Position numbers and translations under genes: made by a program. From SAR202 cluster bacterium (GTDB lineage: Bacteria; Chloroflexota; Dehalococcoidia; Lucifugimonadales; UBA2985): DNA of 64,000 nt. Of the stretch, positions 20,288-64,000 are shown in pieces. The notes beneath the pieces are model-generated. The model saw only the letters and a list, made by a program, of their open reading frames with translations, was not told the origin of the DNA and did no database searches. Location of the stretch: contig VFHP01000013.1 in NCBI GenBank assembly GCA_009391535.1, positions 16 through 64,015 on the forward strand, written 5' to 3'. Numbering within the stretch: position 1 is the first letter of the stretch; each line of letters opens with the position of its first letter.

Positions 20288-21341
20288 TATTGATTACCTC
20301 TAATATTTTTCTAGCTGCATTTTCCCAAGTGTATTGATGGGCAGTTTCTATGCCAGCCTGATTTTTTTTCTTGTTCTTATGCACTTCCCTCATAGCTAGG
20401 GCTATTGATGATATTTCCTCATCGCCTATCTCAGCCCAGTTTCCGCACTTACCATGAAACCACTTGCCATCATAGGCAAGTTCTCTGTTCTTTATCTGTA
20501 CGAGTAGGGAGTTATCAGCGTTGCAGAATTCAGTGTGAGCTGAATAGTCTGTGGCTATTACCTGCTTTCCGCAAGACATCATCTCAAGAAGCTCAAGGTT
20601 CCAGCCCTCACCCCTTGATGGGAATACTCCGCAATCAGTTTGCGACATAATATTATACACCTCTTGCTGTGTCTCCTTCCTACCTATAAATTTTATTTTT
20701 TTAGAGAGGTTGGAGCGATTGTACAAGCTAATCCATTCGGATTGTTCAGATTGGCTATAAAATGGGTTATCGCACATCATCCAGAGTTCAACATTGTCTT
20801 CTTCAGTGAAAGCTTCCTCAAATGCTTTGTATAGTATGTCATGACCCTTTCTTACTTCCCATTTACCACAATTAAAAAAGATTGTCTTGTCTGTATGTTC
20901 TTTTTCCACATATTCAAATATGTCAGAGTCAACTCCTAGTGGTATGACATCAATTCTATCTTCATCAAAATCTATGTTACTTAGGCATACATCCTTTGCC
21001 CACTGGGAGCACACAAAGATTCTGTCGAGTGAGCTTAGGTGATGTTTTTCCAGATCGTTAAAGGCATCAAGTTCAAAAATGGGAAATCCTATTCTTATAC
21101 CATGCCCCGCAAAACTAGACATGTCATGCTGATGCCAGATTTTTATTTGAGGTGCTTCAAAGACAGGCATCTTGCTCATGGATATGAGTTCAGTTATGCA
21201 GCGAGCATCTTCTTCGTTGGTTACTGTTGGTTGACCTATTGGCCAAAGGGATACATCTGTAATCTGACTTAGAGACTTGCATATATTAAGACCTGTGATC
21301 CCATAACCAAGTTGGTTGATAGGTGATATAATATTTATCAT
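20280..21341 (-). CDS. glycosyltransferase family 4 (GT-B)
   Basis: RKGHD, FPSRGEGWNLELLEMMSCG (ExxxxxxxE motif). Confidence 0.85.
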   Translation of the reverse strand: MINIISPINQLGYGITGLNICKSLSQITDVSLWPIGQPTVTNEEDARCITELISMSKMPVFEAPQIKIWHQHDMSSFAGHGIRIGFPIFELDAFNDLEKHHLSSLDRIFVCSQWAKDVCLSNIDFDEDRIDVIPLGVDSDIFEYVEKEHTDKTIFFNCGKWEVRKGHDILYKAFEEAFTEEDNVELWMMCDNPFYSQSEQSEWISLYNRSNLSKKIKFIGRKETQQEVYNIMSQTDCGVFPSRGEGWNLELLEMMSCGKQVIATDYSAHTEFCNADNSLLVQIKNRELAYDGKWFHGKCGNWAEIGDEEISSIALAMREVHKNKKKNQAGIETAHQYTWENAARKILEVINNV

Positions 21342-22156
21342 TGAACTGCCCTTCCTTTAAGTTTTTCCCAATCCCTCTCGGGTCTCACGTCTATATTTGT
21401 AGACCAAGCTCCCTCTAAGGTGTTTAAGTTTAGTCCCAACTTTTTTGCGAAGTGTATTATTCCATTTAAGTCTTTGGGAAAACAGCTACCGCCAAAGCCT
21501 AGTCTACCATCAGGGCCGGGAACGGCAAAGTGTGTGTTTCCGAGTCTATCATCGTAGGTGGCATACTCTATTACCTTATCGTAGTCTACCCCAACAGCAT
21601 CACATAGCATACAGAACTCGTTAGCTATTGATACCTTTGCTGCCAAAAAACAGTTTGTCAGATATTTTACAAACTCCGCTGTCTCTGATGTTGTCTGTAC
21701 AATACTAGCTTTAGGAAAGACTTTGAGGTAGAACTGCTTCATTACCTTTGTTGCTGATGGAGTTCCACCAAGAATGATTCTGCTGGTATTTTTGAAGTCT
21801 TCAGTAGCATTTCTCTCTAAGAGGAATTCAGGGTTGAAGACAACCCTTTGTTGATTTTCTGAGGAAATTCTGGATGTCGTTCCCGGTGTTACGGTGGACT
21901 TAATAGCTACTATAGAGTTGGTGTCTATTTCTTTGCACACACTCTCAACTATTGATGTATCACACTCCCCATCTGGAGCCATAGGTGTGGGTACGCATAC
22001 AAAAGTTATGTCGCATCCACTAGAAGCGTCAGATATACTACTGAACTCACCGTCCTTGAACTTGTCATAAGTGTGGACATTGTAATGCTTTGAAAAAGCC
22101 TTCCTTAACGCAGTCCCAACAAACCCTTGTCCTATTATGCATACGTTACCTGTCAT
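21338..22156 (-). CDS. UDP-glucose/GDP-mannose dehydrogenase family (lacks C-terminal domain)
   Basis: GQGFVG, CVPTP, KSTV.PG, NPEFL, GFGGSCFPKD. Confidence 0.85.
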   Translation of the reverse strand: MTGNVCIIGQGFVGTALRKAFSKHYNVHTYDKFKDGEFSSISDASSGCDITFVCVPTPMAPDGECDTSIVESVCKEIDTNSIVAIKSTVTPGTTSRISSENQQRVVFNPEFLLERNATEDFKNTSRIILGGTPSATKVMKQFYLKVFPKASIVQTTSETAEFVKYLTNCFLAAKVSIANEFCMLCDAVGVDYDKVIEYATYDDRLGNTHFAVPGPDGRLGFGGSCFPKDLNGIIHFAKKLGLNLNTLEGAWSTNIDVRPERDWEKLKGRAVQ

Positions 22157-34474: not shown

Positions 34475-35096
34475 TTTTCCAATTTAGTGCCTCTGATGTA
34501 TTAGGGAAATTGTCTATAAAGAGGGACTTGATTGATTCTGCAATATCCCTGTGTTCTCTCTGTGTAGATGGGTCTGTTCTAAGTTGTATGTAGTGAATCC
34601 AGCTACGAACAGTACCATTCATGTACATGCGTGTCTTAGTGTTTAGCGGCAATAGGAACCTAGCAGATTCTTTAGCGATGCCTAACGACAGAGCCGTTTC
34701 GTAATAATAGTTACTAAGTTCTTCAACTTCCTTTACCGCTCCATTAAACCAATCAATAATACCATCCTCTATGTCGTCTATAGAATTTTGTCGGTTTTTA
34801 GTGTCCTGCCTACGTGGTTTAACGTCTTCAAAGCCTTGAGCTTTTGCGTACCTTTGGCTAAACTCCTGAAAAGAAAAGCTTCTATGTCTGAGTATTTGTG
34901 CAGCAATACCACGAGTTGTCTCTATTTCTACAACCATATTGGCCATCTCGAAGATAGACCAATGGCCGTGTTTAATGCAATAACCAAGAAGCTTGGAAAC
35001 GTCTGGGTTGTCTTGGTTTTTAGGGTTGCTTACTCTAGCGCAGTACCCAATTACATTTTCGGCTTCTGGCGTTACCGAGATGAGTTTTGTTTTCAA
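34467..35096 (-). CDS. thyX: flavin-dependent thymidylate synthase
   Basis: [28 protein letters not shown]. Confidence 0.95.
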
Positions 35097-35473
35097 CTTT
35101 CTTCCTTTTGGTTCCTGTTGTATTTATCTGTCAGTCTAACAATGTCGTTCTCGTCACATACGCCAACCTGCATTTCAAAGATAACTAGCATGGACGTGCC
35201 TATATTTTTAACCTGATGCTTAACACCGCTTTTAATTGAGAAAGTATCACCACTAAAGGCACCAGCCTCTATGTCATTTATAATCATCAGCCCGTGACCT
35301 TCTAGGATATACCAAAACTCATCCCGCTTGGAGTGGTATTGGTATGACATCTCTTCTCCGGGGGAAACCTCTATTCTTTTAAAGACTACATTTTTTGTTC
35401 TGTATATATCTGTGTACTGACCCCAAGGTTTAGAAACATGAACCTTGCCATCGTGGATTCTGCTTTTATTCAT
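35093..35473 (-). CDS. cupin, mannose-6-phosphate isomerase type II C-terminal-like
   Basis: [17 protein letters not shown]...N, EMQ.G..E.DIVR. Confidence 0.8.
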
Positions 35474-35897
35474 CTTTTGCCCCTTTAGAGTTAGATACAA
35501 GTTCGCTACTGCTTTGAACCTTTCCTCCTCCTGCGTTGTAAACCATCTCGATGCCATACACGTCACATGTGGCGTCCTCTGGTACGTTGTGTTCTTTTCT
35601 ATCTCCACCATTAGCAAAAATGTTTGGACGAAGACGTTCAAGAGCTTTGCATACAGTGTCGTCACTATCATCAACAGAAGAGACTGCATCGACACCTCTA
35701 AAGCCCATCAGTATTTCCCTTCTCTCGTCAAAAGGCATGAACACATAACCTTTCTTTCTTTGGAGCCAATCATCGCTATTGAGTATTACAATAAGCTTTC
35801 CATCTATGCCAGCGAGCTTCTTGGCTGCTCTTATCATTCTTAAGTGTCCCACATGTACTGGGTCAAAGCCTCCACTTATACATACTGTTAAGCCCAT
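35466..35897 (-). CDS. cytidylyltransferase-like nucleotidyltransferase
   Basis: SGGFDPVHVGH, NSD, NGGDR, SSS. Confidence 0.85.
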   Translation of the reverse strand: MGLTVCISGGFDPVHVGHLRMIRAAKKLAGIDGKLIVILNSDDWLQRKKGYVFMPFDERREILMGFRGVDAVSSVDDSDDTVCKALERLRPNIFANGGDRKEHNVPEDATCDVYGIEMVYNAGGGKVQSSSELVSNSKGAKDE

Positions 35898-37944: not shown

Positions 37945-38652
37945 TCATAGTATTATGTCCTTTAGTATCTCTCTAGTGTGCATCCAGCTATGTACATTAT
38001 AAAATGAGTCACAAACCTGTGATATCGTGTAGTCATTTCCGTTTGGGTGACATCTGTCCCCAAAATATATAGTTTCTCCAGACATGTCCTGTACAACTTG
38101 GGACTTGTCTCTCCCTTTTGGAAAGATGTCTATGCTTATCTCCCCACCTATCATAAATTGTAAGTCTGGGTACTTGGGAGACAGTTCCTTCACTATTCTA
38201 TCTCTCTCTTTGTTAACTAAATCCCAAGTGTAGTATTCTTGCCTCTCTTCGTCAGAGCAATTTCTTCCGATAGTTGAGAAGTTACAGGTGCCTGTTCTTT
38301 GTTCAAGCTTTACTGTAGCTGTGTTACGCCAATGGCTACCTTCGACTATCATTTTCAGATCTTCTTTTAGATCATCTGAAGCGACCCAAGAAGCCGACTT
38401 GATTACAGAGTTTCTTATGTAGAGGACATTACCAGAACATTGGTAGCAACCGTCCCAAGATATATGTCTCCATAGGGAAACGCCTAGTTGCTGAACTGAT
38501 TTTCTCTTATCTGAACCTGTTACCAGAAAAACTTTATGTCCCAAGCTTCTAGCCTCAGTAATCCAACCCCCAAACATTTTACGGAAAGATCTGTTTATAG
38601 ATTTTCTAGACGGTGTGAGAGTTCCATCTACGTCAAATAAAAAGTTAGCCAT
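37945..38652 (-). CDS. HAD-IIB phosphomannomutase (eukaryote-type PMM-like)
   Basis: FDVDGTLT, TGSD, NFSTIGR, GGEISIDIFPKG.DK, FGD....GNDY. Confidence 0.85.
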   Translation of the reverse strand: MANFLFDVDGTLTPSRKSINRSFRKMFGGWITEARSLGHKVFLVTGSDKRKSVQQLGVSLWRHISWDGCYQCSGNVLYIRNSVIKSASWVASDDLKEDLKMIVEGSHWRNTATVKLEQRTGTCNFSTIGRNCSDEERQEYYTWDLVNKERDRIVKELSPKYPDLQFMIGGEISIDIFPKGRDKSQVVQDMSGETIYFGDRCHPNGNDYTISQVCDSFYNVHSWMHTREILKDIIL

Positions 38653-46919: not shown

Positions 46920-47378
46920 TTAGTTAACTTTTATTACTTTAGGTTGCTTCTCTTCGGGGATATTCTCCTCAAGAGTTACTGTAAGCAGACCATCATTAAA
47001 TTCTGCGGACTTAACCTCCACATGCTCCCCAAGCTTAAAGTCTCGCTTGAACTTACGTGTGGCTATGCCCTTATGTACATGTACATGATCTTCACTATGT
47101 TCAGAGTGACCGGAAGCTGCAATAGAAAGAATACCTTCCTCGACTACTACATTCAGGTCGTCCTTGCTATATCCAGCCAAGGCAACCTCAACAAGAGTGG
47201 TCTTGTCCTTCTGAATTATATTATATGGGGGAAAGTTACTATTAACCTGACTTGTGTAAACTAGCTGGTTGAATAGTCTGTCTAAACCAATGGTACTACG
47301 AAAGAACTCATTAAATAGTTTATCGTGCAGAGTTGGCGTCTCTTTCCCTTTGTGGGAAAAATTTTTAATTACGTTCAT
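46920..47378 (-). CDS. small heat-shock protein Hsp20 (IbpA-like)
   Basis: FPPYNI, ALAG, HKGIATRKF, A...DGLL. Confidence 0.92.
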   Translation of the reverse strand: MNVIKNFSHKGKETPTLHDKLFNEFFRSTIGLDRLFNQLVYTSQVNSNFPPYNIIQKDKTTLVEVALAGYSKDDLNVVVEEGILSIAASGHSEHSEDHVHVHKGIATRKFKRDFKLGEHVEVKSAEFNDGLLTVTLEENIPEEKQPKVIKVN

Positions 47379-47450
47379 ATCTTTTCTCCTTGTTAAAGCA
47401 AGATTAAAGTGCTACCCTCTTAGGCGTAGCTGTTTGCCCGCACAGGCAAG

Positions 47451-47788
47451 TGGAGGCGGCGGGAATCGAACCCGCGTCCAGTATAATATCCACACTAGTA
47501 TCTACATTGTTAGTCTATTGTAGTCGCACAAAAGACAAAGCTATCAGGAATTACCTGAATCAGACAAATTATTGCCATCACCCTCCTTTACTTCAAGTGA
47601 GAAAACTCTATCCGATTATCGGAGTCAGCGTAATTGGGTAAGAAGGTTTACGCAACCCCCTGCCGCTAAGCGGCTAGTGCGAAATTCTTTTCGGCACTTA
47701 GAACTTTAATCGGTTTTTATACTGGCCTACCGATCAACCAGTCAATGCAACTAATACTTTTATTACCTGTCGATGCCTTTTCACCCCC
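47451..47788 (-). ncRNA. ssrA: tmRNA, tag peptide (A)AEKNFALAA*
   Basis: 5' GGGGGTG...TCGAC; 3' GGACGCGGGTTCGATTCCCGCCGCCTCCA with G3.U pair; tag ORF at 47666-47695. Confidence 0.93.
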
Positions 47789-54517: not shown

Positions 54518-54544
54518 TGGCACAAAAATTGCGGGGTGTTTTTG
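54518..54544 (+). promoter_or_regulatory. sigma54-type -24/-12 box (copy 1 of 5)
   Basis: TGGCACAAAAATTGCGGGGTGTTTTT. Confidence 0.6.
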
Positions 54545-54581
54545 AAAAAAGCCGGGCCGTTTTTTGGCCCGTTGTCAACCC

Positions 54582-54862: not shown

Positions 54863-54879
54863 GCCCAACGAAAGGAAAC

Positions 54880-56463: not shown

Positions 56464-56490
56464 TGGCACAAAAATTGCGGGGCGTTTTTT
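56464..56490 (+). promoter_or_regulatory. sigma54-type box (copy 2)
   Basis: TGGCACAAAAATTGCGGGGCGTTTTTT. Confidence 0.6.
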
Positions 56491-56518
56491 GATATATTAT
56501 TCAAGGTACTCCACCATG

Positions 56519-56716
56519 TCACACCCTCTTCTCATTCAACCACGGAAACGCATCTTCTAATTCCTGTGCGCTATCTCTCCCAGCCTCCGCCAAACTTCCT
56601 AAGTCTACGTCTGACTCACCTATGTGAGCTACAGCCATACAGTCCAGCCATGCGTGTGTAATAGCGTCAACTTGTTCATTTGTTAAATTATCCGGCATGT
56701 CGTACCAATCTCCCAC
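56519..56716 (-). CDS. small acidic protein
   Basis: ORF in the early cluster. Confidence 0.5.
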   Translation of the reverse strand: MGDWYDMPDNLTNEQVDAITHAWLDCMAVAHIGESDVDLGSLAEAGRDSAQELEDAFPWLNEKRV

Positions 56717-56820
56717 TCCAAATCATTGTTATCCATTAGCTCGTTTAGATATTCATATACATCTATGTCATCAATATCGTCACGTTCAAAGTCTAAATAT
56801 ATTACTACTGTACTACTCAT
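56683..56820 (-). CDS. small acidic protein (45 aa)
   Basis: Manual translation MSSTVVIYLDFERDDIDD...; starts inside the TTGAAGATGAGT junction. Confidence 0.5.
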   Translation of the reverse strand: MSSTVVIYLDFERDDIDDIDVYEYLNELMDNNDLEWEIGTTCRII

Positions 56821-56896
56821 CTTCAATTTCCACTTTATTTTCTTCAAGCCAATCTAACCAAACCTGCCTCATAATATCCCATCCATCACTACTCAT
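56813..56896 (-). CDS. 27-aa microprotein
   Basis: MSSDGWDIMRQVWLDWLEENKVEIEDE*; starts and ends in junction repeats. Confidence 0.45.
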   Translation of the reverse strand: MSSDGWDIMRQVWLDWLEENKVEIEDE

Positions 56897-57077
56897 CTTC
56901 AACCCCTTTTACCTCAATACCAAGTTCATTATAAGAATAATTAGTAGCTGCTATGCAGGCATCTAAGCTCCAAGCCTCGGCAACAATACCCTCATCACCT
57001 AATTGAATCTCAACAGTAGCACCAGACTCAGGGCTTATCATATGTGGCTCTAAATGTAGGTATATAGTTCTACTCAT
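56889..57077 (-). CDS. small hypothetical protein
   Basis: MSRTIY...GVEDE*. Confidence 0.55.
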   Translation of the reverse strand: MSRTIYLHLEPHMISPESGATVEIQLGDEGIVAEAWSLDACIAATNYSYNELGIEVKGVEDE

Positions 57078-57231
57078 CTTCAATCTCCGGTGGACAATCT
57101 CTATCATCAATGTAATACTGCCAGTCAGCAGGTAGTCCATTAACTTCGACTACCATGCCACCCTCTACAACAATGCTTACTAGCTTATCGCTATCAGCAA
57201 TTTCTCCGGTCTTATAATTAAGATCACTCAT
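57070..57231 (-). CDS. small hypothetical protein
   Basis: MSDLNY...EIEDE*; GAGGAG SD. Confidence 0.55.
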   Translation of the reverse strand: MSDLNYKTGEIADSDKLVSIVVEGGMVVEVNGLPADWQYYIDDRDCPPEIEDE

Positions 57232-57257
57232 CTTCAACTCCTCTATATAGTCTACCA

Positions 57258-57605
57258 TTATACTGGCTTAAACATCAGTGCAGGTCTGTCCATAGGAACC
57301 CGCCGACTTCCCTCTCCCCAAGATATTGTAATCTCACAACGTAAGTGGGTTGCGGATTCAACTACCTTGACCACAAAGCCATGTTTCTCAAATTCGTCAG
57401 CAATCGCATCTCTATGATAGTAGCAATCACTGACAGTAAGACTCGTATAACCCTCTCGTGCTGCTTTCTTTAACCTTCTTCTAACACTTGTAATTCTATT
57501 GCTAAGAGTATGTGAGGAATTGCTCTTACGTTTAGCCTTAGCCGCAAGTTCCCTACAATCCTCTAACAATTTAGAAGGCAAATAATTTTCATACTTCTCA
57601 CTCAT
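57258..57605 (-). CDS. hypothetical protein
   Basis: MSEKYE...ITISW. Confidence 0.55.
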   Translation of the reverse strand: MSEKYENYLPSKLLEDCRELAAKAKRKSNSSHTLSNRITSVRRRLKKAAREGYTSLTVSDCYYHRDAIADEFEKHGFVVKVVESATHLRCEITISWGEGSRRVPMDRPALMFKPV

Positions 57606-57628
57606 CTTCAATCTCTCTTAAAAAGAAA

Positions 57629-57732
57629 ACCGGCTTGTCCGACTTACGCAGCAGGCGCACAGTGCTTTAACGTCCTTAGTCCTGCTACTCGGTTACGGTT
57701 TTGGATCACACCGCACTTGTGACCTCGCCGGT
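57629..57732 (-). ncRNA. putative structured RNA (multi-stem, possible pseudoknot)
   Basis: ACCGGC/GCCGGT closing stem then U-tract; GGTCAC/GTGATC; GTAGCAGG/CCTGCTGC; AGTGC/GCACT. Confidence 0.5.
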
Positions 57733-57745
57733 ATTCCTAGTCAGG

Positions 57746-57913
57746 CTACTCTAGTGTAACGTCACTTCCCATTGCGGCAAACAGGCCATTCAGCCAGTCC
57801 CTTGCACCCTCGTCGTCATCCATATCAATAGGCTTTCCGTCGTCGGTTGCTTCACAATAGTCATGCAGCAAGTTAAAGTCTCCGTGAAAAATAGGTTCTT
57901 CTGGGTTACTCAT
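57746..57913 (-). CDS. small acidic protein (55 aa)
   Basis: Manual translation MSNPEEPIFHGDF...; AAGGAG SD. Confidence 0.5.
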   Translation of the reverse strand: MSNPEEPIFHGDFNLLHDYCEATDDGKPIDMDDDEGARDWLNGLFAAMGSDVTLE

Positions 57914-58091
57914 TCTTTTCTCTCCTTGTGGTTAGAATTACTCCCAACCATCAGCTAACACAAACATTAAAACTAAAAGCAAAATCGCTCCCATAGGCAG
58001 CACTCCTCAAAAGGTTACATCGTACACTCCTTCATTATACCATACATCGTCATTTTGTCAACCAAACTTTAGCTTATCCTGATATATATAG

Positions 58092-58164
58092 TAGGGCTGG
58101 TGAGAATCGAACTCACGACACCCGCCTTATAAGGACGGCGCTCTTACCACTGAGCTACAGCCCC
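58092..58164 (-). tRNA. tRNA-Ile(UAU)
   Basis: Cloverleaf; CCGTC-CT TAT AA-GGCGG; discriminator A; no CCA. Confidence 0.88.
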
Positions 58165-58206
58165 GCAGCGTGCCTTTTTATATCAGAAGGCTAACTGGTT
58201 GTATTG

Positions 58207-58377
58207 TGGAAGGGTGGGATTTATGTATCACCCACAACGTTTCAGGGACAGATATGTCTACGGTTTGACCCGCTTCCCTACTTTGTACCACCTCTAACAG
58301 CCTCATCCATTCGGACATACTCCGTTAGCGGTGTGCCTTTGCGACCTCTGACTAGCTTTCGCTTTCAGCCACCTTCC
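58207..58377 (-). ncRNA. expanded tRNA-like RNA (171 nt)
   Basis: GGAAGG/CCTTCC-A acceptor, TGGCTGA...AAGGCA D-arm, 12-bp anticodon-position stem, branched variable arm, GTGGG/CCCAC T-stem. Confidence 0.6.
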
Positions 58378-58488
58378 TGTCAGATGGGAGCTACCCACCT
58401 AACATATATTTTAGGGACAGTCCAAAGCCTGCATACGCGGCAACCTCTGAGCAATGGACTAAGTTCACTTGATTGCTAGCTAGTCCCT
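58378..58488 (-). ncRNA. putative structured RNA modules
   Basis: 11-bp hairpin 58378-58404; domain 58413-58488 closed by AGGGAC/GTCCCT. Confidence 0.45.
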
Positions 58489-58489
58489 A

Positions 58490-58888
58490 TTATTCTGGAT
58501 TCAACGCCAATACCGGCGGTTCACCATGTTTTAAGTCTAGTTCAACAAACTCTGCTTGATGAACTGGGTTACCTTGAAAGTCTACAAACGTCTTTGCTTT
58601 GTAGGGGTTGTAATATATTTCATCTAGAACCGCTGGCGAGCAGTTGTTTGAAATATAACCTCTAACGAAAGCATGAACATTCTTACGCTTCTCTCGTATA
58701 ACCTTAGCGTGTCCTGCCGGTTGGACTACGAACACGCAATCCCTTAGACTGACAACGCTACAGTGGAACTTGACAAGACCGGCTTGCCTAACGCTCCAAC
58801 ACTTCTTATGCAGGTTTCGGTAGACCTCAATCTTGCGACTGGGGTCTACCAGAGTGACCTGCTCTTTATAGTCATCCGTGTTAATCAT
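58490..58888 (-). CDS. conserved hypothetical phage protein
   Basis: VYRNLH...SVR...FVV..AG...V....RKNVHAFVRG...YNPY. Confidence 0.7.
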   Translation of the reverse strand: MINTDDYKEQVTLVDPSRKIEVYRNLHKKCWSVRQAGLVKFHCSVVSLRDCVFVVQPAGHAKVIREKRKNVHAFVRGYISNNCSPAVLDEIYYNPYKAKTFVDFQGNPVHQAEFVELDLKHGEPPVLALNPE

Positions 58889-58895
58889 GGTTATA

Positions 58896-59135
58896 TTATA
58901 CCACATCTCCAACAGATTTCAAGTAGATTTTGCACAAAGTTTTAAATCTTTTGTGCGTACTTCCATCTTGAGGGTGAGCCGCAACGATTACGCCGCTATC
59001 CTCAATCTTGACGAAACGTGAAGGCTTCTCTTGCCCGCACTTAACCCACTGACCGGCCTGCAACTTCAACTGACCAGTACGAACCATATGTGCCGTGTTG
59101 CCGTCCCAAAGGTCAACCGTCTTCGTGTAACGCAT
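58896..59135 (-). CDS. hypothetical protein
   Basis: AAGGAG SD. Confidence 0.6.
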   Translation of the reverse strand: MRYTKTVDLWDGNTAHMVRTGQLKLQAGQWVKCGQEKPSRFVKIEDSGVIVAAHPQDGSTHKRFKTLCKIYLKSVGDVV

Positions 59136-59345
59136 CTCGTCTCTCCTTGTGCTTACCTGTGAAATAGAAATCGTTTCTTATGTCTCTATTATACTATATC
59201 GTCATTATATGTCAATAGTCTTTAGCCTTTTCCTCAGAATTTTCCAATCTTTTCGCTGGCTATCTTATGGTGTCTTAGATCCGGGAAGATTGGCTAAGAC
59301 CTGGGGTGGCCGGGATGTAACCCCTTGGCCGGGAAGGGTTTGCGT

Positions 59346-59374
59346 CAAAAAACGCCTACGCATTTTTCGTGCCA
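59346..59374 (-). promoter_or_regulatory. sigma54-type box (copy 3)
   Basis: TGGCACGAAAAATGCGTAGGCGTTTTTT immediately 3' of tRNA-Asp. Confidence 0.5.
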
Positions 59375-59377
59375 AAG

Positions 59378-59451
<74 letters not shown>

Positions 59452-59567
59452 AGTAAAACATACTACACCCTAACATATATACGAAATGAAAACGAGTGAA
59501 GGGAAGCCCAGCGTAATGCTGGACTCCCCCGCACAAGTAAACACCCCTTTCAGGGACACAACAAAGA

Positions 59568-59774
59568 TTAGACTTTCTGCGGGTCAATCATCTTTGAAAA
59601 CGAGAGTGTGCGGACAGTGTTGTCCTCGCTGCGAATAGTCGCATACAGACCATTCTTGCTAACGCCGAGATTCTCGACAACTCCCTCGTGTCGCTTCAAG
59701 ATGTTGCGACGACCATGCTTTGGGTATTTGCAGGCGAGTGTATCGCCCTTGACGATGTTTACATTATTAAACAT
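59568..59774 (-). CDS. small SH3-like hypothetical protein
   Basis: AAGGAG SD before MFNNVN. Confidence 0.55.
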   Translation of the reverse strand: MFNNVNIVKGDTLACKYPKHGRRNILKRHEGVVENLGVSKNGLYATIRSEDNTVRTLSFSKMIDPQKV

Positions 59775-59775
59775 A

Positions 59776-59931
59776 TTATTTGTCTCCTTTGAAAGACAGT
59801 TCAACTTGTGCGAAGTCCAACGTAGACTTCTTACCATTCTTTTCAACCGTGACACTATCATGATTGATGGATACAACAGTACCCTGCGGCAACTCAGTGC
59901 CAACACTAACAAGTGGCTTCTGATTACTCAT
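59776..59931 (-). CDS. small hypothetical protein
   Basis: MSNQKP...; GAGGAG SD, overlaps the upstream stop. Confidence 0.5.
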   Translation of the reverse strand: MSNQKPLVSVGTELPQGTVVSINHDSVTVEKNGKKSTLDFAQVELSFKGDK

Positions 59932-60181
59932 CAGCAATCTCCTCTGAAAATGCTTCTTCTTTCGCTTTGGCTTCAGCGATCTCTTTAGCCAACTCCTCAG
60001 CTCTCTCGCTGTCATACTGAGCAATTCGCTCATTCAGACGTTTGGTCAAGCTCCGTAGCTGCTGCTCGTCGTAGCTGAACTCCACCTTGTCATCACCAAA
60101 GTATAGTTCAATCTTCTCAGACCAACTGGAAACGTATGAAGCGGTCAGGTTGCCAGCTTCGATTTGTTGAGAAACTTTCAT
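59924..60181 (-). CDS. hypothetical protein
   Basis: GGGAG SD, downstream of promoter 60227-60266. Confidence 0.6.
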   Translation of the reverse strand: MKVSQQIEAGNLTASYVSSWSEKIELYFGDDKVEFSYDEQQLRSLTKRLNERIAQYDSERAEELAKEIAEAKAKEEAFSEEIADE

Positions 60182-60226
60182 TTTCTCTCCCTTTCAAAAA
60201 AGTAGTGTTACTGTGCTACAGCATTC

Positions 60227-60266
60227 ATTATACAATAATTATCGGCATTGTCAACCGGTTTCTTTA
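60227..60266 (-). promoter_or_regulatory. nested sigma70/sigma28-like promoter
   Basis: TAAAGAAACCGG-TTGACA-ATGCCGATAATTATTG-TATAAT. Confidence 0.8.
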
Positions 60267-60272
60267 ACTTTT

Positions 60273-60680
60273 TTACCACCAACTAGAATATATAACAGTA
60301 TATCCTTGCTTGATTGCGGCGCGAGCCTGAACGATAAATTCACGGTCTTGCTCGGCGTAGTGGATACTAGAGTCAGTACCAAAGAAGAAACCTGCTGTTT
60401 CCGGTAGTGCTTCCTCGTCAAGACTCTGTTCAAGACAGTCCAAGTCACTCAGTGTCAACTCTAAGTCAACACAGTTGAAGTCACTGCCAAAGCCAGTGTC
60501 AGTGGTTTCAGGATTACCGTTAGGACAACCCTTCTCATACCAAAGGTTTTCCATCCACCCTTGCAGGTTTGGATGCTTACGCCAGTAGGCTAGCTCCATC
60601 TCATCTTCATAGAAGATATAACCTTCTTCATCTTTCTGTGGCTGGCCTTTGCGTGCCATCCCGTATTGGTCTAATCCCAT
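60273..60680 (-). CDS. conserved phage protein (MGLD...YWRK...GFFFG...Y.SWW)
   Basis: Motif pattern common in phage early regions. Confidence 0.7.
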   Translation of the reverse strand: MGLDQYGMARKGQPQKDEEGYIFYEDEMELAYWRKHPNLQGWMENLWYEKGCPNGNPETTDTGFGSDFNCVDLELTLSDLDCLEQSLDEEALPETAGFFFGTDSSIHYAEQDREFIVQARAAIKQGYTVIYSSWW

Positions 60681-60835
60681 TTCTTTTCTCCTTACGTTGT
60701 CCTTTGTTACTCTTCTATTATAACATATATCGGCTGTTTGTCAAGTCATTCTTTAATCTTTTTTTTGCTTTTTTTCGCTGGCGGTGAGTTTTCGCTGACT
60801 TCCACATCGCCGCTTGACTCTTTTAGTTTAGGGAA

Positions 60836-60929
60836 GACAACACGATGGCAAGCCTGTCCATCTGTACCCTACACCGTCTTACCGATGCTGTCCCGTCTGG
60901 GCTACGAAGGCTTTAACTGGGGTGTTGTC
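60836..60929 (-). ncRNA. putative stand-alone small structured RNA
   Basis: Starts about 8 nt after promoter 60938-60965; 8-bp closing stem GACAACAC/GTGTTGTC; no ORF. Confidence 0.6.
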
Positions 60930-60995
60930 ACTACTCCATTATAGTATATATCGGCTATATGTCAAGTAGACTTGAGACAATTCCAGAATTTTCTT

Positions 60996-61022
60996 TGGCA
61001 TAAAAATTGCGGGCCGTTTTTT
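60996..61022 (+). promoter_or_regulatory. sigma54-type box (copy 4)
   Basis: TGGCATAAAAATTGCGGGCCGTTTTTT. Confidence 0.55.
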
Positions 61023-61035
61023 GAAATTTAAAGAA

Positions 61036-61165
61036 ACCGGCGACCCTCATGTTGGCGATGAGAGATCTATTTGAGTCCTGTTATCCCGCCGCCCTCTTCT
61101 CATCTTACAGTTACCGTTGTTAGCGTAAGACGACAGGCAGGCAACCAACACAAAGGTCAACCGGC
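61036..61165 (-). ncRNA. putative 3'-UTR structured RNA / long terminator
   Basis: GCCGGT-GACCTT-TGTTGG pairs with CCAACA-AGGGTC-GCCGGT then U-tract; inner GTCTTAC/GTAAGAT. Confidence 0.5.
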
Positions 61166-61184
61166 ATTCTCTCGAAAGGAATTC

Positions 61185-61490
61185 TTATCCCCAAGCCTCG
61201 TTCATTTCTTCGGCATCGGCTTGGGCTTTCATGGCTTTCATTGTGATACCGTATACACACGCGGATAGCTCAATCAACATCGACGCCGCCGCTTGTGCGT
61301 TAATGTCTTCGTCATGCTCAATCAGCGGTTCAACATATTTATTAATAACCTCGTGAATGGCCATAGTCAGTTCCGGCTGTTCAGTCATACCGTCAAGCAT
61401 GGTAGTCATTGCAAACTCATCAGGCCTCGATTGTACAGCCTTGTCGAGTGTTGCTAATATGGTATCAATGTTAATTCTTGGAAGTGTCAT
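61185..61490 (-). CDS. hypothetical protein
   Basis: ACGAAAGGAAAG SD. Confidence 0.6.
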   Translation of the reverse strand: MTLPRINIDTILATLDKAVQSRPDEFAMTTMLDGMTEQPELTMAIHEVINKYVEPLIEHDEDINAQAAASMLIELSACVYGITMKAMKAQADAEEMNEAWG

Positions 61491-61540
61491 AATTCTTTCC
61501 TTTCGTAATATTGTTTAGTACAACTTTATTATATCATACT

Positions 61541-62323
61541 TTATACAGTTGTCAACTTTTTTCTACTGTAAGATCCGACGCCTTTCAGGGCTTTCAGTGC
61601 CGTCGCTGCATCGGTTCCCTTTGGTTGCGTTCCGTGTAGCAGTAGGGCAAAACTCTGATTCTTTAATGATGGACGTGCCGCATGGCTGTCATCGTGGTCA
61701 ATTTCTAATCCGAGTTTATTCGCTTCCGCTTCACTGAACACAACCTGTGCGAATCGTAGATTCTGGGATTCGATTAATTCGTCATTTCTTCCGCCATAGC
61801 TAGCAGTAAGAACAAAATTATCAATGCTACAATAGTAATCCTCCAACTCAAGCCAATACTTCAGTGACTTAGTGTAAGCATAGAATAACGTGTTGGGATT
61901 GAGTTCCGCCAACGTCATCCATGCTAACATATAATCACGACTAAAGAAATCGCCTGCAACGTGGATTCTCACGATACCCGCATCCGATGGAAGTGCATCA
62001 TATAACATACGATTCATTTCCAACTGTGACGATCCACGCAACATATCAAAATTGTGTTTGCGTGAATTGTATACGTTGGTATACTGCACTTCTTGGCTAG
62101 CAGAGAAACAACGGAATTCTGTTTTCTTTCCGTCTTTGATTTTCCGCTTGCCGGTTGCCTTGTCAACTGTTGCCTTAGAAAGACACTTCTCAGCAAACGG
62201 ACAACTATAACCGCTCAGCAGGTCAAGAGAATAGATTTTCCGCTTGTCTGCAAGATACGGCTTCAGCTCCTCGACTTGCTTCAGGGCTTCAGTTTTGGCA
62301 TTGGCTTTTGAGAACTTCAACAT
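61541..62323 (-). CDS. GP88-like phage protein
   Basis: SCPFA..C, RC, RIHVAGDF, YAYTKS. Confidence 0.75.
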   Translation of the reverse strand: MLKFSKANAKTEALKQVEELKPYLADKRKIYSLDLLSGYSCPFAEKCLSKATVDKATGKRKIKDGKKTEFRCFSASQEVQYTNVYNSRKHNFDMLRGSSQLEMNRMLYDALPSDAGIVRIHVAGDFFSRDYMLAWMTLAELNPNTLFYAYTKSLKYWLELEDYYCSIDNFVLTASYGGRNDELIESQNLRFAQVVFSEAEANKLGLEIDHDDSHAARPSLKNQSFALLLHGTQPKGTDAATALKALKGVGSYSRKKLTTV

Positions 62324-62516
62324 TGTGCTTTCCTTTCGCGTGATTGTTTCCTCTATTATAATATATTATCGGCATATGTCAAGGGGCAACTTAAACTTTT
62401 TTTCGCATTTTTACTGACTTTCCGCTGGCTATACATTGGAGCATTTAACCCGATAGGATTGAGGGGGACAGATCATTATAGCACATATCCCCGCCGATGT
62501 CAAGGGCAAAAAAATA

Positions 62517-62543
62517 AAAAAACGCCCCGCGATTTTTGTGCCA
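62517..62543 (-). promoter_or_regulatory. sigma54-type box (copy 5)
   Basis: TGGCACAAAAATCGCGGGGCGTTTTTT. Confidence 0.55.
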
Positions 62544-62550
62544 AAAATAT

Positions 62551-63031
62551 AGCAGCCTCAAACCGGCACGAAAGGAAACCGGCGAGGCTGCTGGTGAACC
62601 GCGCATCAAGCGCGGGATAATTGTGTGGCGACTTGCAGGGGATTTGCACCCCTACCGATTGCACTGAACTGGAGGGACTAAGCTGTCCCATCGTATCCAC
62701 CGATTTGGTTAACCGCCCCTCGGGGCATCCTCGGTTTCGTGTCCTATCTATCAGTTCAGTGGCTTATCAACCGGCGCACTACGCCAAGCCATTGTATTGT
62801 GCCGCGTTTATACCCCAGTAGCAGACGTTAGGCTTTCACTTTACTAAAGGGGAGCGGCGTTGTATTGCACTGGTGAGTGTGGCGATCAACCACGCTCTCA
62901 TTCACTGCGACCCGATGCCTCGGACAGTGAAGCCCACGCCAGTGTCGTGAGCAGGTTGTGATGCCGGAAAAGCGAATTAACTTGCGGACTGACATGTCCA
63001 AGCCGCAGAGGTTTCCTTATCTGGCTATCAC
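62551..63031 (-). ncRNA. array of structured RNA modules incl. a tRNA-like RNA ending in CCA (62626-62790)
   Basis: ORF-free, GC-rich, six self-closing modules separated by CAATACAA-type linkers. Confidence 0.65.
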
Positions 63032-63040
63032 GCACTTGTA

Positions 63041-63253
63041 TCAAAATTCGTTATATAGGTCACAATCCCACTCGTATTCAGCGTGATCGTATTGGCCGTG
63101 ATCCCAATCATCACCGCCGTAAAAATCCTGCCACTCATCATACTCAGACGGTTGGCCGTCGTCTTCCATGATGTCGTCCACCGTAGGCTCATCCACCTCT
63201 GGAAGGTAGTCGTCCATAAACGGCTTGCTGCGTTGGATGTTGTCGTTGCTCAT
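63041..63253 (-). CDS. highly acidic small protein (possible DNA mimic)
   Basis: Very D/E-rich 70 aa; ACGAAAGG SD. Confidence 0.6.
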   Translation of the reverse strand: MSNDNIQRSKPFMDDYLPEVDEPTVDDIMEDDGQPSEYDEWQDFYGGDDWDHGQYDHAEYEWDCDLYNEF

Positions 63254-63278
63254 AGTAAAACCTTTCGTAGAGTAAAAA

Positions 63279-63363
63279 AGTGGGATGCAGTGGCTCTTAA
63301 CCCTAGCCGGTTGGCTCCAGTTCCCGTTTTGAGTCGTCCCCAGTGGTCGGGGTGCCTGTCACT
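63279..63363 (-). ncRNA. putative structured leader RNA
   Basis: Begins just after promoter 63375-63402; several hairpins, ends in U6. Confidence 0.4.
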
Positions 63364-63374
63364 CGTATGTCTTT

Positions 63375-63414
63375 ATTATACTATAATTATCGGCGTTGTC
63401 AAGTGGTTTCTTTA
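63375..63414 (-). promoter_or_regulatory. nested sigma70/sigma28-like promoter
   Basis: TAAAGAAACCAC-TTGACA-ACGCCGATAATTATAG-TATAAT. Confidence 0.8.
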
Positions 63415-63654
63415 GTTTTTTTTGAAGTTTTTCAAATCTTCGTACCGAAGAGGCCCAGCACCAATACGGCTAGGGTAGCCAGCGTCAATCCAGTGGTTGA
63501 CTGTACCCTTCGTGGTGTCGTAGGGTGAGATGTCAGCAAACACGGTTTCGCCGTTTGGCTTTGTAACCGTATGCCAAGCCTTACACACGTCAGGCTCAAC
63601 GTGGAATTCAATCCTACAATCGTGATTCTTATAAGTCCAAGTTTTGTCTTTCAT
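63412..63654 (-). CDS. hypothetical protein
   Basis: ACGAAAGGG SD; promoter at 63678-63706. Confidence 0.6.
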   Translation of the reverse strand: MKDKTWTYKNHDCRIEFHVEPDVCKAWHTVTKPNGETVFADISPYDTTKGTVNHWIDAGYPSRIGAGPLRYEDLKNFKKN

Positions 63655-63927
63655 AATTTCCCTTTCGTTATGTATATATTATACCATAAATTGCGCCGGT
63701 TGTCAAGAGCAAACTTCAGTTTTTTTTGCTTCTTTGTCTATGACAATCATGGCGTCAATAATGGCATACTTCACAGCCTTTGATGCACCTAGTGCTTGAG
63801 CCTTGAAGATAACTTCCCATAGCTCTCGCTTAATCTCTTTTATGTCTTTTATGTCTTTCACTTTATTACCTTTCGTGTTAGGGTGCTGTCGGTTACCCCA
63901 GTTGAATGTTGCCCTTGTTATGTCTTA

Positions 63928-63967
63928 AGTATACTATAATTATCGGCAATGTCAAGAGTAAACTTGA
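63928..63967 (-). promoter_or_regulatory. nested sigma70/sigma28-like promoter
   Basis: TCAAGTTTACTC-TTGACA-TTGCCGATAATTATAG-TATACT. Confidence 0.75.
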
Positions 63968-64000
63968 GAAAAAATCAAGATAAATACCACTTTCCAGTGG

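Follow-up and report, generated by a model that had tools for sequence, protein, structure and literature searches.

The right-hand 6 kb of contig VFHP01000013.1, filed under a SAR202 cluster bacterium (assembly GCA_009391535.1), is the early region of a marine phage, in which genes for small acidic proteins stand among genes for folded non-coding RNAs, and it is these RNAs, delimited here as ten modules, that form the subject of this report. The DNA analyzed (hereafter the window, in whose numbering all positions are given) comprises 64,000 nucleotides (nt), positions 16 to 64,015 of the forward strand, and is nearly the entire 64-kb contig (C13), which belongs to a bin of 26 contigs and 1.36 Mb. 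The minus strand holds 96 of the 116 non-overlapping open reading frames (ORFs) of the window, whose proteins include rIIA, a DnaB-type helicase, a Toprim primase, RecA/UvsX, a class II ribonucleotide reductase, thyX, dUTPase and PhoH, as well as sugar-nucleotide enzymes, and Rfam 15 at gathering thresholds finds one transfer-messenger RNA (tmRNA) and three transfer RNAs (tRNAs). Because of this protein set, the strand layout and the tmRNA and tRNA genes, we regard the contig as a phage contig within a bacterial bin. The sequencing runs that contain the sequence are marine metagenomes, and its relatives in IMG/VR that CheckV rates as complete measure 130-177 kb.

Between 56 and 64 kb the window holds 30 promoter-like sites, against 13.5 +/- 3.5 in shuffled sequence, and 11 perfect matches to the sigma-70 consensus TTGACA-N16/17-TATAAT, found on the minus strand only. 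The small ORFs, and the ORF-poor intervals that an earlier note on this DNA had flagged, sit between the perfect promoters; promoters and small ORFs together make up a typical early-gene setting. The earlier note had described six such intervals as ORF-free, raised in GC content and built of modules whose ends pair. All six lie where it placed them, with every unit on the minus strand; GC content is moderately raised (0.50-0.61 over modules versus 0.26-0.39 over promoters, in 100-nt windows), and the five pairs of complementary ends it listed are all present, closing modules E2, E3, E1, B1 and C. The term ORF-free proved loose, since ORFs of 30-91 amino acids (aa) overlap the intervals, but these are unconserved chance ORFs. 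The modules, whose coordinates were delimited by hand from position rulers and which are all read on the minus strand, and the features around them are as follows, from right to left.

63375..63402 (minus strand): sigma-70 consensus promoter with 12 of 12 hexamer matches, heading the unit of F, a 70-aa ORF and E1-E4
63282..63325 (minus strand): module F, a 44-nt motif of a closing helix and two small hairpins (covariation, 18 homologs)
62958..63031 (minus strand): module E1, with a long closing helix (covariation, 8 homologs)
62868..62944 (minus strand): module E2, a predicted three-way junction of closing helix, long hairpin and T-arm-like hairpin (8 homologs)
62860..62867 (minus strand): linker CAAUACAA between E2 and E3
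62801..62858 (minus strand): module E3, 58 nt, with three stacked helices, an 18-nt loop and a 7-nt bulge (covariation, 48 sequences)
62792..62799 (minus strand): linker CAAUACAA between E3 and E4
62626..62791 (minus strand): module E4, a 166-nt tRNA-shaped RNA (covariation, 13 sequences)
62552..62591 (minus strand): terminator-like hairpin with a 24-nt loop, closing the E unit
61036..61165 (minus strand): module D, a predicted long irregular hairpin with a U-rich tract (folding only)
60836..60929 (minus strand): module C, a 94-nt pseudoknotted RNA (covariation, 11 sequences)
58413..58488 (minus strand): module B1, a 76-nt RNA directly upstream of the manA-like B2 (4 homologs)
58208..58404 (minus strand): module B2, a divergent manA-type RNA (alignment to Rfam RF01745, and covariation)
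58206-58199 (minus strand): linker CAAUACAA, one A after B2
58164-58092 (minus strand): tRNA-Ile(UAU)
57629..57732 (minus strand): module A, a three-helix RNA (covariation, 9 sequences)
47448-47788: tmRNA (genuine)

Three transcription units can be read from this layout. The first runs from promoter 63402 through F, a 70-aa acidic ORF, E1, E2, a linker, E3, a second linker, E4 and a small hairpin to the terminator-like hairpin. The second, headed by promoter 60965-60938, holds C by itself, which starts about 9 nt past the -10 box; behind it comes the next promoter, at 60744-60717. The third leads from promoter 58922 through two ORFs, B1 and B2 to a single A, the linker, a small hairpin and tRNA-Ile(UAU). 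The earlier note had placed the RNAs behind the strongest promoters and beside tRNAs. The region does carry the 11 perfect promoters, but only F and C stand directly behind one, the remaining modules coming after the small ORFs of their transcription units (D is located after ORF 61185-61490 and A after ORF 57746-57913); likewise, the B array adjoins tRNA-Ile but is the only array that touches a tRNA. A tRNA-Asp is also present in the region.

To compare these modules with relatives, the Pfam family GP88, represented by a neighboring protein, was used to retrieve 80 IMG/VR loci; a DNA search of 36 of these locus records gave matches in 34, whose early regions were compared. An exact-pattern scan for E3 returned 9 stretches in IMG/VR and at least 119 in metagenomes, of which 80 metagenome stretches were taken; a profile search confirmed E3 in 62 of them, and the 18 non-E3 stretches were dropped from the counts. 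As the homolog sets come from nhmmer profiles and this one exact-pattern scan, divergent members were probably missed. No match was found in 50,697 isolated phage genomes searched with the region by megablast and blastn, and therefore all comparison rests on uncultured contigs. In these relatives the modules are found singly, in different loci and orders (blastn, nhmmer), so that the module families recur individually, in varied orders and neighborhoods, in related uncultured marine phages.

Base pairs were counted on MAFFT alignments of the homologs and compared with two controls, in which the 3' partners were either shuffled (500 times) or slid by 1-3 columns. None of the 500 shuffles reached the covariation score in E3, E4, B2, C, F, E1 or A. 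Because related sequences can beat shuffles even without a structure, it is the slid controls, with 22-53% of cells paired across all seven of these modules, and the counts of distinct compensatory pairs that carry weight. In E3 (48 distinct sequences) 99.3% of cells are paired, 7 of 14 pairs are compensatory and the score is 0.400 versus 0.196 in shuffles (slid controls, 30-48%). The corresponding values are 98.8%, 17 of 44, and 0.301 versus 0.171 for E4 (13 sequences); 93.6%, 25 of 43, and 0.483 versus 0.203 for B2 (9 sequences); 93.3%, 15 of 30 with the pseudoknot included, and 0.298 versus 0.132 for C (11 sequences); and 90.1%, 8 of 12, and 0.377 versus 0.151 for F (18 distinct homologs). 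The 5-bp pseudoknot of C is paired in 10 of the 10 sequences that have letters there, with one compensatory change. Covariation argues more weakly for E1 (8 sequences; 91.2% of cells paired, 5 of 26 pairs compensatory, score 0.206 versus 0.134) and for A (9 sequences; 98.7%, 3 of 17, 0.212 versus 0.133), whose count of compensatory pairs was reached in 22 of 500 shuffles. Taken together, the alignments show selection for RNA secondary structure in at least seven of the ten modules.

The other three modules vary too little for such a comparison or have next to nothing to be compared with. B1 is represented by 4 near-identical sequences, with 2 of 22 pairs compensatory. The eight E2 homologs are 91% identical, so the predicted structure is weakly tested: a single pair covaries, and its terminal helix has a competing alternative hairpin, the variation being too low to choose between the two. 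D has a single homolog, which lies on contig C7 of the same bin and is 94% identical, and none of the 44 predicted pairs is compensatory; the folding z score of D (-4.54) was reached by none of 200 shuffles, and D may be either an elaborate terminator or an RNA gene. Contig C7 (1-21 kb) is a second phage-like contig with a paralogous early region, in which ORFs are 67-74% identical and, besides the D copy, partial copies of C and F are present. It has a tmRNA of its own and a cluster of tRNA-Glu, Ile(UAU), Arg(UCU) and Leu(UAA), and may be the other portion of this phage's genome or represent a second phage related to it.

Folding of single sequences separates the modules from shuffles far less than covariation does, with z scores of -1.53 for A, -0.87 for B1, -1.30 for C, -1.88 for E2, -1.84 for E3 and +0.64 for F; D and E1 (-2.43) are the outliers, and the whole E and B stretches give -3.96 and -2.17. 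As the evidence from the window alone is thin, in folding as in the linker count given below, the case rests on the relatives. On their testimony the modules are real, conserved and structured non-coding RNAs of a phage, mostly uncatalogued. The earlier note had predicted at least ten unannotated structured RNAs. Ten were delimited and compensatory change was found in seven of them, leaving B1 and E2, which barely vary, and D, which has no comparative support; within the intervals there is no Rfam match at gathering thresholds, and just one module matches any family, below threshold. That module is B2, a manA relative, so not all of the modules are uncatalogued.

B2 aligns with positions 1-192 of the manA model RF01745 at 26.0 bits (local E 5.9e-5), below the Rfam gathering score of 55.2 bits, and its homologs score 51.9, 43.7, 28, 25.2, 24.9 and 24.2 bits. 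The alignment runs over the full length of the RNA and includes the 5' hairpin, the enclosing helix and the conserved 3' hairpin, the last two at high posterior probability. With the covariation given above, this identifies B2 as a divergent member of the manA family. The family was put forward as a riboswitch candidate on the basis of sequences from marine metagenomes and cyanophages (Weinberg et al. 2010, PMC2864571), and a 2026 preprint (10.64898/2026.07.01.735769) describes members that assemble into decamers and a 60-subunit cage by cryo-electron microscopy. B2 shares with them the 5' hairpin, the enclosing helix, the conserved 3' hairpin and an origin in marine phages; it differs in that its central domain diverges and in that it stands in an RNA array by tRNA-Ile, whereas manA lies in the 5' untranslated region of a metabolic gene. 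Assembly into closed oligomers (decamers built on pentamers, or 60-mers) is known for other family members only. Gene classes ahead of which manA RNAs were originally described do occur in the window, namely mannose-6-phosphate isomerase (35093-35695), phosphomannomutase (37945-38652), UDP-glucose/GDP-mannose dehydrogenase (21338-22156) and an Hsp20 chaperone (46920-47378). An Rfam search of positions 14000-57000 at E up to 0.5 found no manA-type RNA beside these sugar-nucleotide and Hsp20 genes, and nothing further.

E4 is predicted to form a four-arm junction with an acceptor-like helix of 6-7 bp, a 3-bp D-like hairpin, a branched arm of about 125 nt and a T-arm (62653-62637) of 5-6 bp with a 7-nt loop, in which bases 1 and 5 are U and A in all 13 sequences. 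The window copy ends in CCA at 62628-62626, and in 11 of 13 sequences the acceptor-like helix is followed by G and CCA; a U before the first paired position and a G at it are found in 13 of 13. The helix also keeps a G.U pair in 12 of 13, which falls at 3:70, where tmRNA has its alanine identity pair G3.U70, or at 2:71, depending on whether the outermost U.G pair is counted. Acceptor helix, T-arm with a 7-nt T-loop, unpaired base and CCA are thus all present, and the branched arm replaces the anticodon stem with its 7-nt loop: E4 has a tRNA outline with an encoded CCA and without an anticodon loop. No tag reading frame was seen in E4, and it gave no match to the tmRNA model RF00023 in an Rfam search of 56500-64000 at E up to 10. 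E2 resembles a tRNA less closely. Its closing helix is followed by A and CCA in 5 of 8 homologs (CAA in the window copy) and a canonical T-loop sequence is found in 5 of 8, but the acceptor-like helix is longer and has mismatches; in place of the anticodon arm stands a hairpin with a tetraloop. In one relative (L006:1176-1370) E2 is followed by a spacer and an element of about 190 nt with a canonical T-arm and acceptor-like ends, which would be either another long RNA in tRNA shape or a small gene of the tmRNA kind.

E3, C and F are small and have long unpaired stretches that do not vary, as is typical of RNAs with a binding partner. The 18-nt loop of E3 is strictly conserved and its loops are nearly invariant across the 48 sequences; three homologs have an additional hairpin within the loop. 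Among the Rfam matches to 56500-64000 at E up to 10 there was, for E3, C and F, no ribozyme family (hammerhead, twister, pistol, hatchet, HDV-like) and no riboswitch model. At the 62 confirmed metagenome loci E4 lies 8-9 nt downstream of 12 E3 copies and E2 lies 11 nt upstream of 5, the others having different neighbors. In cellular genomes (185,579 species genomes, from which the window's own genome may be excluded) a profile search found no full-length E3; the E3 pattern gave 37 matches versus about 70 expected by chance, as roughly estimated, and two partial profile matches were marginal. F, which in the window lies within the 5' leader of ORF 63041-63253, is followed by a linker and E3 at one metagenome locus. 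At another (L149:700-777) a chimera is found, in which the 3' half of E3 is joined without a gap to that of F, with a CA-rich spacer after it; this hints at recombination between modules. In E1 a loop region of 11 nt (63001-62991) is invariant in 8 of 8 homologs and includes a self-complementary stretch of 8 nt (62998-62991); one of the eight has a wholly different closing helix with the loop region unchanged.

A weak hint of expression comes from marine metatranscriptomes, where contigs from three of four runs, 90-100% alike, cover 62831-63034 (parts of E1-E2-E3), 58414-58494 (B1), 57686-57733 (the core of A) and 63281-63364 (F), and also tRNA-Asp. None of the four runs covers C, D, E4 or the greater part of B2, though contigs cannot establish absence.

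The linker CAAUACAA is present at all three places where the earlier note had reported it, each time on the minus strand, and the note had seen in it a shared processing site of linker-separated arrays. Within the window the string is no more frequent than chance, with 4 matches versus 3.13 +/- 1.83 expected and 36 of 100 shuffles reaching 4, so that its reality rests only on conservation in relatives. There the spacer pattern lies directly 5' of E3 in 36 of 48 distinct copies and directly 3' in 26 of 48; the 10 nt on the 5' side are 61% A, 26% C, 10% U and 3% G, and those on the 3' side 47% A, 25% C, 21% U and 6% G. A G-poor, CA-rich conserved spacer sets apart E2, E3, E4, B2 and, in relatives, F, which upholds the arrays. 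The CCA at the end of E4 copies leads into the final five or six linker letters, and for this reason the window linker reads as a CCA-like triplet with a short CA-rich trailer. As for the shared processing site, that reading is limited by the spacer not being dedicated to arrays, closely related CA-rich strings occurring also as ordinary leaders of early messenger RNAs. The possibility that it is a shared tRNA trailer was rejected, as none of 80 distinct tRNAs carries the linker; since genuine tRNAs and the tmRNA have different trailers and encode no CCA, the spacer is not a general tRNA-processing signal. It is best seen as a conserved, pairing-inert sequence that would let the modules fold independently and leave the chain open to single-strand nucleases.

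From these observations we favor, with rather modest confidence, the reading that the early region encodes independently folding RNA modules that are transcribed from strong promoters and released as stable free RNAs. C, placed between two promoters, and A, which begins 7-9 nt past a TATAAT box in 8 of 9 homologs and finishes with a U run, look like stand-alone units. The sigma-70-type promoters would produce short multi-module transcripts early in infection, in which a terminal helix would close each module, with a single unpaired base and CCA or CAA after it. A helix with an unpaired base and CCA is the classical minimal substrate of RNase P, and on account of this format the host RNase P would be expected to cut ahead of the tRNA-shaped modules and the tRNAs. 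A single-strand endonuclease of the RNase E type would cut within the spacers, and the modules would be freed as stable RNAs, with the closing helices contributing to their stability. Once free, B2 may self-assemble into closed oligomers, by homology with manA, E1 could dimerize through its invariant self-complementary loop, and the tRNA-shaped E2 and E4 could occupy proteins that handle tRNA ends; both the self-assembly of B2 and E1 and the binding of E2 and E4 to such proteins are speculative. A, F and D may, instead or additionally, act in cis on the gene that follows them. A bolder version, which we consider improbable, holds that the CCA-tailed tRNA-shaped RNAs (E4, E2) form a class not described before and that host tRNA-maturation enzymes would free them, along with small pseudoknotted partners (E3, C, F), early in infection. 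In concert with the cage-forming manA-type RNA they would then either build an assembly made only of RNA, in which tRNA-like cargo is kept or shielded, or serve as decoys for host nucleases and transferases that target tRNA ends. Among 86 ORFs of the window, Pfam detected neither a CCA-adding enzyme nor an RNA ligase nor any other enzyme that handles tRNA.

Several observations weigh against the release of the modules as free RNAs. An encoded CCA blocks RNase Z, and E3 and B2 end in CAA rather than CCA. The earlier note had spoken of tRNA mimics, a description that suits E4 and, less firmly, E2 (acceptor-like helix, T-arm, CCA), but tRNA detectors miss both: the Rfam tRNA and tmRNA models do not find them at E up to 10 over 56500-64000 or 0.1 in relatives, and neither does ARAGORN at its default setting. 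With the threshold relaxed to 80%, ARAGORN produced tRNA and permuted-tmRNA calls that overlapped one another and were regarded as noise. E2, B1 and D show little or no covariation, and the folding energies of single modules are mostly inside the shuffle range. In many early messenger RNAs (mRNAs) of these phages the leader that precedes the ribosome-binding site, behind the promoter, is a string nearly identical to the CA-rich spacer, and the spacer may be mere unstructured filler; the different trailers and missing CCA of the 80 genuine tRNAs and the tmRNA have been mentioned. The metatranscriptome contigs also cover ORFs, may represent DNA carry-over, and show neither ends nor strand nor level. 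Finally, A and F precede ribosome-binding sites in most homologs, which fits cis-regulation equally well.

This last point belongs to the alternative that survives best, a doubtful one in our judgment yet a real possibility, in which the modules would work in cis as leaders or terminators of the neighboring early genes, whether as attenuators, riboswitch-like sensors or translation controls, and not as free RNAs. F lies 15-40 nt ahead of the start codon in most homologs. A, whose closing helix is followed by a U run and which stands directly ahead of ORF 57258-57611, is succeeded in 8 of 9 homologs by the U run, a ribosome-binding site and a small ORF. U runs also come after the closing helix of B2, B1 or E2 in several homologs, D resembles a long terminator hairpin, and loops at 62578-62567 and 61179 are complementary to the early ribosome-binding leader. 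The first of these is a 12-nt stretch exposed by the loop of the terminator-like hairpin, and its complement is the leader with ribosome-binding site common to five early genes, which start near 63875, 63667, 63267, 62338 and 61505. Position in the 5' untranslated region is thus common for A and F, but the constant link to functionally related genes that would mark a cis-regulatory leader was not seen, the ORFs downstream of the two encoding small, mutually unrelated proteins. F and E3, moreover, also sit within linker-separated arrays, C stands alone between two promoters, the E array consists of four modules placed after an ORF and before a terminator, and the tRNA-like and manA-like formats of E4, E2 and B2 are not known as leaders in this context.

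Two side observations concern the same sequences. The small ORFs behind A in 8 homologs are unrelated in sequence, yet 5 of the 8 share an acidic tail ending in E-D-E. Further stretches complementary to the shared early leader and ribosome-binding motif lie at 61173-61179 and 54869-54875 on the minus strand.

It is very unlikely that E2, E4 and their neighbors are decaying tRNA or tmRNA genes, functionless remains of a tRNA cluster. Their T-arm-like hairpins, acceptor-like helices and CCA tails could be so explained, and tRNA-Ile, tRNA-Asp and a tmRNA are found in the same region. Decay would, on the other hand, erase both the pairing of E4, kept at 98.8% in 13 sequences that have 17 compensatory pairs and whose long unpaired stretches do not vary, and the near invariance of the E3 loops, and the genuine tRNAs here are without an encoded CCA. 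We give equally little credence to the modules being small mobile DNA elements, with their ends as terminal inverted repeats and the linker as a duplicated target site, even though they recur singly in many contexts, E3 has a nearly identical string of 8-9 nt on both sides, and one locus carries the E3-F chimera described above. Compensatory changes affect internal helices and not just the ends, every copy has one orientation relative to transcription, and the flanking string also serves as an mRNA leader where no module is present. That the intervals encode small proteins, as the overlapping ORFs of 30-91 aa might suggest, is hardly credible, because from homolog to homolog the longest open frame switches between strands and frames, indel lengths are mostly not divisible by three (internal gap runs in multiples of three: B2 2 of 56, A 1 of 19, E1 2 of 23, E4 24 of 75, C 19 of 46), and the observed changes preserve base pairs.

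Two further features of the early region lie outside the modules. The perfect promoter at 62503-62475 is only about 90 nt from the next, at 62382-62355, and the segment 62400-62474 (minus strand) could be an extra short RNA unit. A repeat of about 34 nt, 93-97% alike and present in both orientations, occurs at 62529-62562, 56475-56508, 54531-54558 and 59340-59376; the copies stand where transcription units end, a short way before promoters, and the repeat may be a bidirectional terminator or an upstream promoter element.

Structured RNAs of phages beside tRNA islands are already known, in the form of GOLLD, ROOL and manA. GOLLD and ROOL are described as structured RNAs of phages and prophages, often by tRNA islands, that form RNA-only cages, and GOLLD members often exceed 800 nt (10.1101/2024.12.08.627333). 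The RNAs reported here resemble them in being phage-encoded and structured, and cages are formed by GOLLD and ROOL as by manA members; the difference, as far as that description goes, is that GOLLD and ROOL are single RNAs several-fold longer, whereas here there are many modules of 44-200 nt. Neither GOLLD nor ROOL gave an Rfam match in the region, at gathering thresholds in the window or at E up to 10 over 56500-64000. The small stable RNAs of phage T4 (species 1 and 2, rnaC/rnaD) lie in a tRNA cluster, are co-transcribed with tRNAs and are matured by host tRNA-processing enzymes. They too are small phage RNAs other than tRNAs, compared here by description and not by sequence; the modules outnumber them, for the most part do not adjoin tRNAs, and have promoters of their own. 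With the tRNA-like domains of tmRNA and of YrlA as portrayed in PMC4201824, E4 and E2 share a putative acceptor-like helix, a T-loop hairpin, a CCA-type end and the lack of a decoding anticodon loop, but they are without the tag reading frame or the Ro-binding helix, and the Rfam models for tmRNA, tRNA and related RNAs are unmatched. A large-scale comparative survey of IMG/VR lists about 10,000 predicted structured RNAs in uncultured phages, some of them tRNA-like (Fremin et al. 2023, PMC10690425). Short strings of E3, C and A, in DNA and RNA letters, are absent from 6 supplementary files of that survey, three others, probably alignments, being outside the search.

What is new is the combination of consensus-promoter units outside a tRNA cluster, the CCA-encoding tRNA-shaped E4 and E2, and the strongly covarying families E3, C and F. 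GOLLD, ROOL and manA were recently found to build RNA-only cages of unexplained purpose, and the arrays bear on that question: the manA-type RNA is here one member of a larger conserved set of small RNAs, which includes CCA-ended tRNA-shaped RNAs, behind very strong promoters. One module of the set, E3, is carried by at least 62 related metagenome loci. The window supplies several compact, covariation-backed RNAs of 44-166 nt for structural and biochemical study, and for the arrays it offers a concrete processing hypothesis, in which RNase P and cleavage in the spacers would set the modules free.

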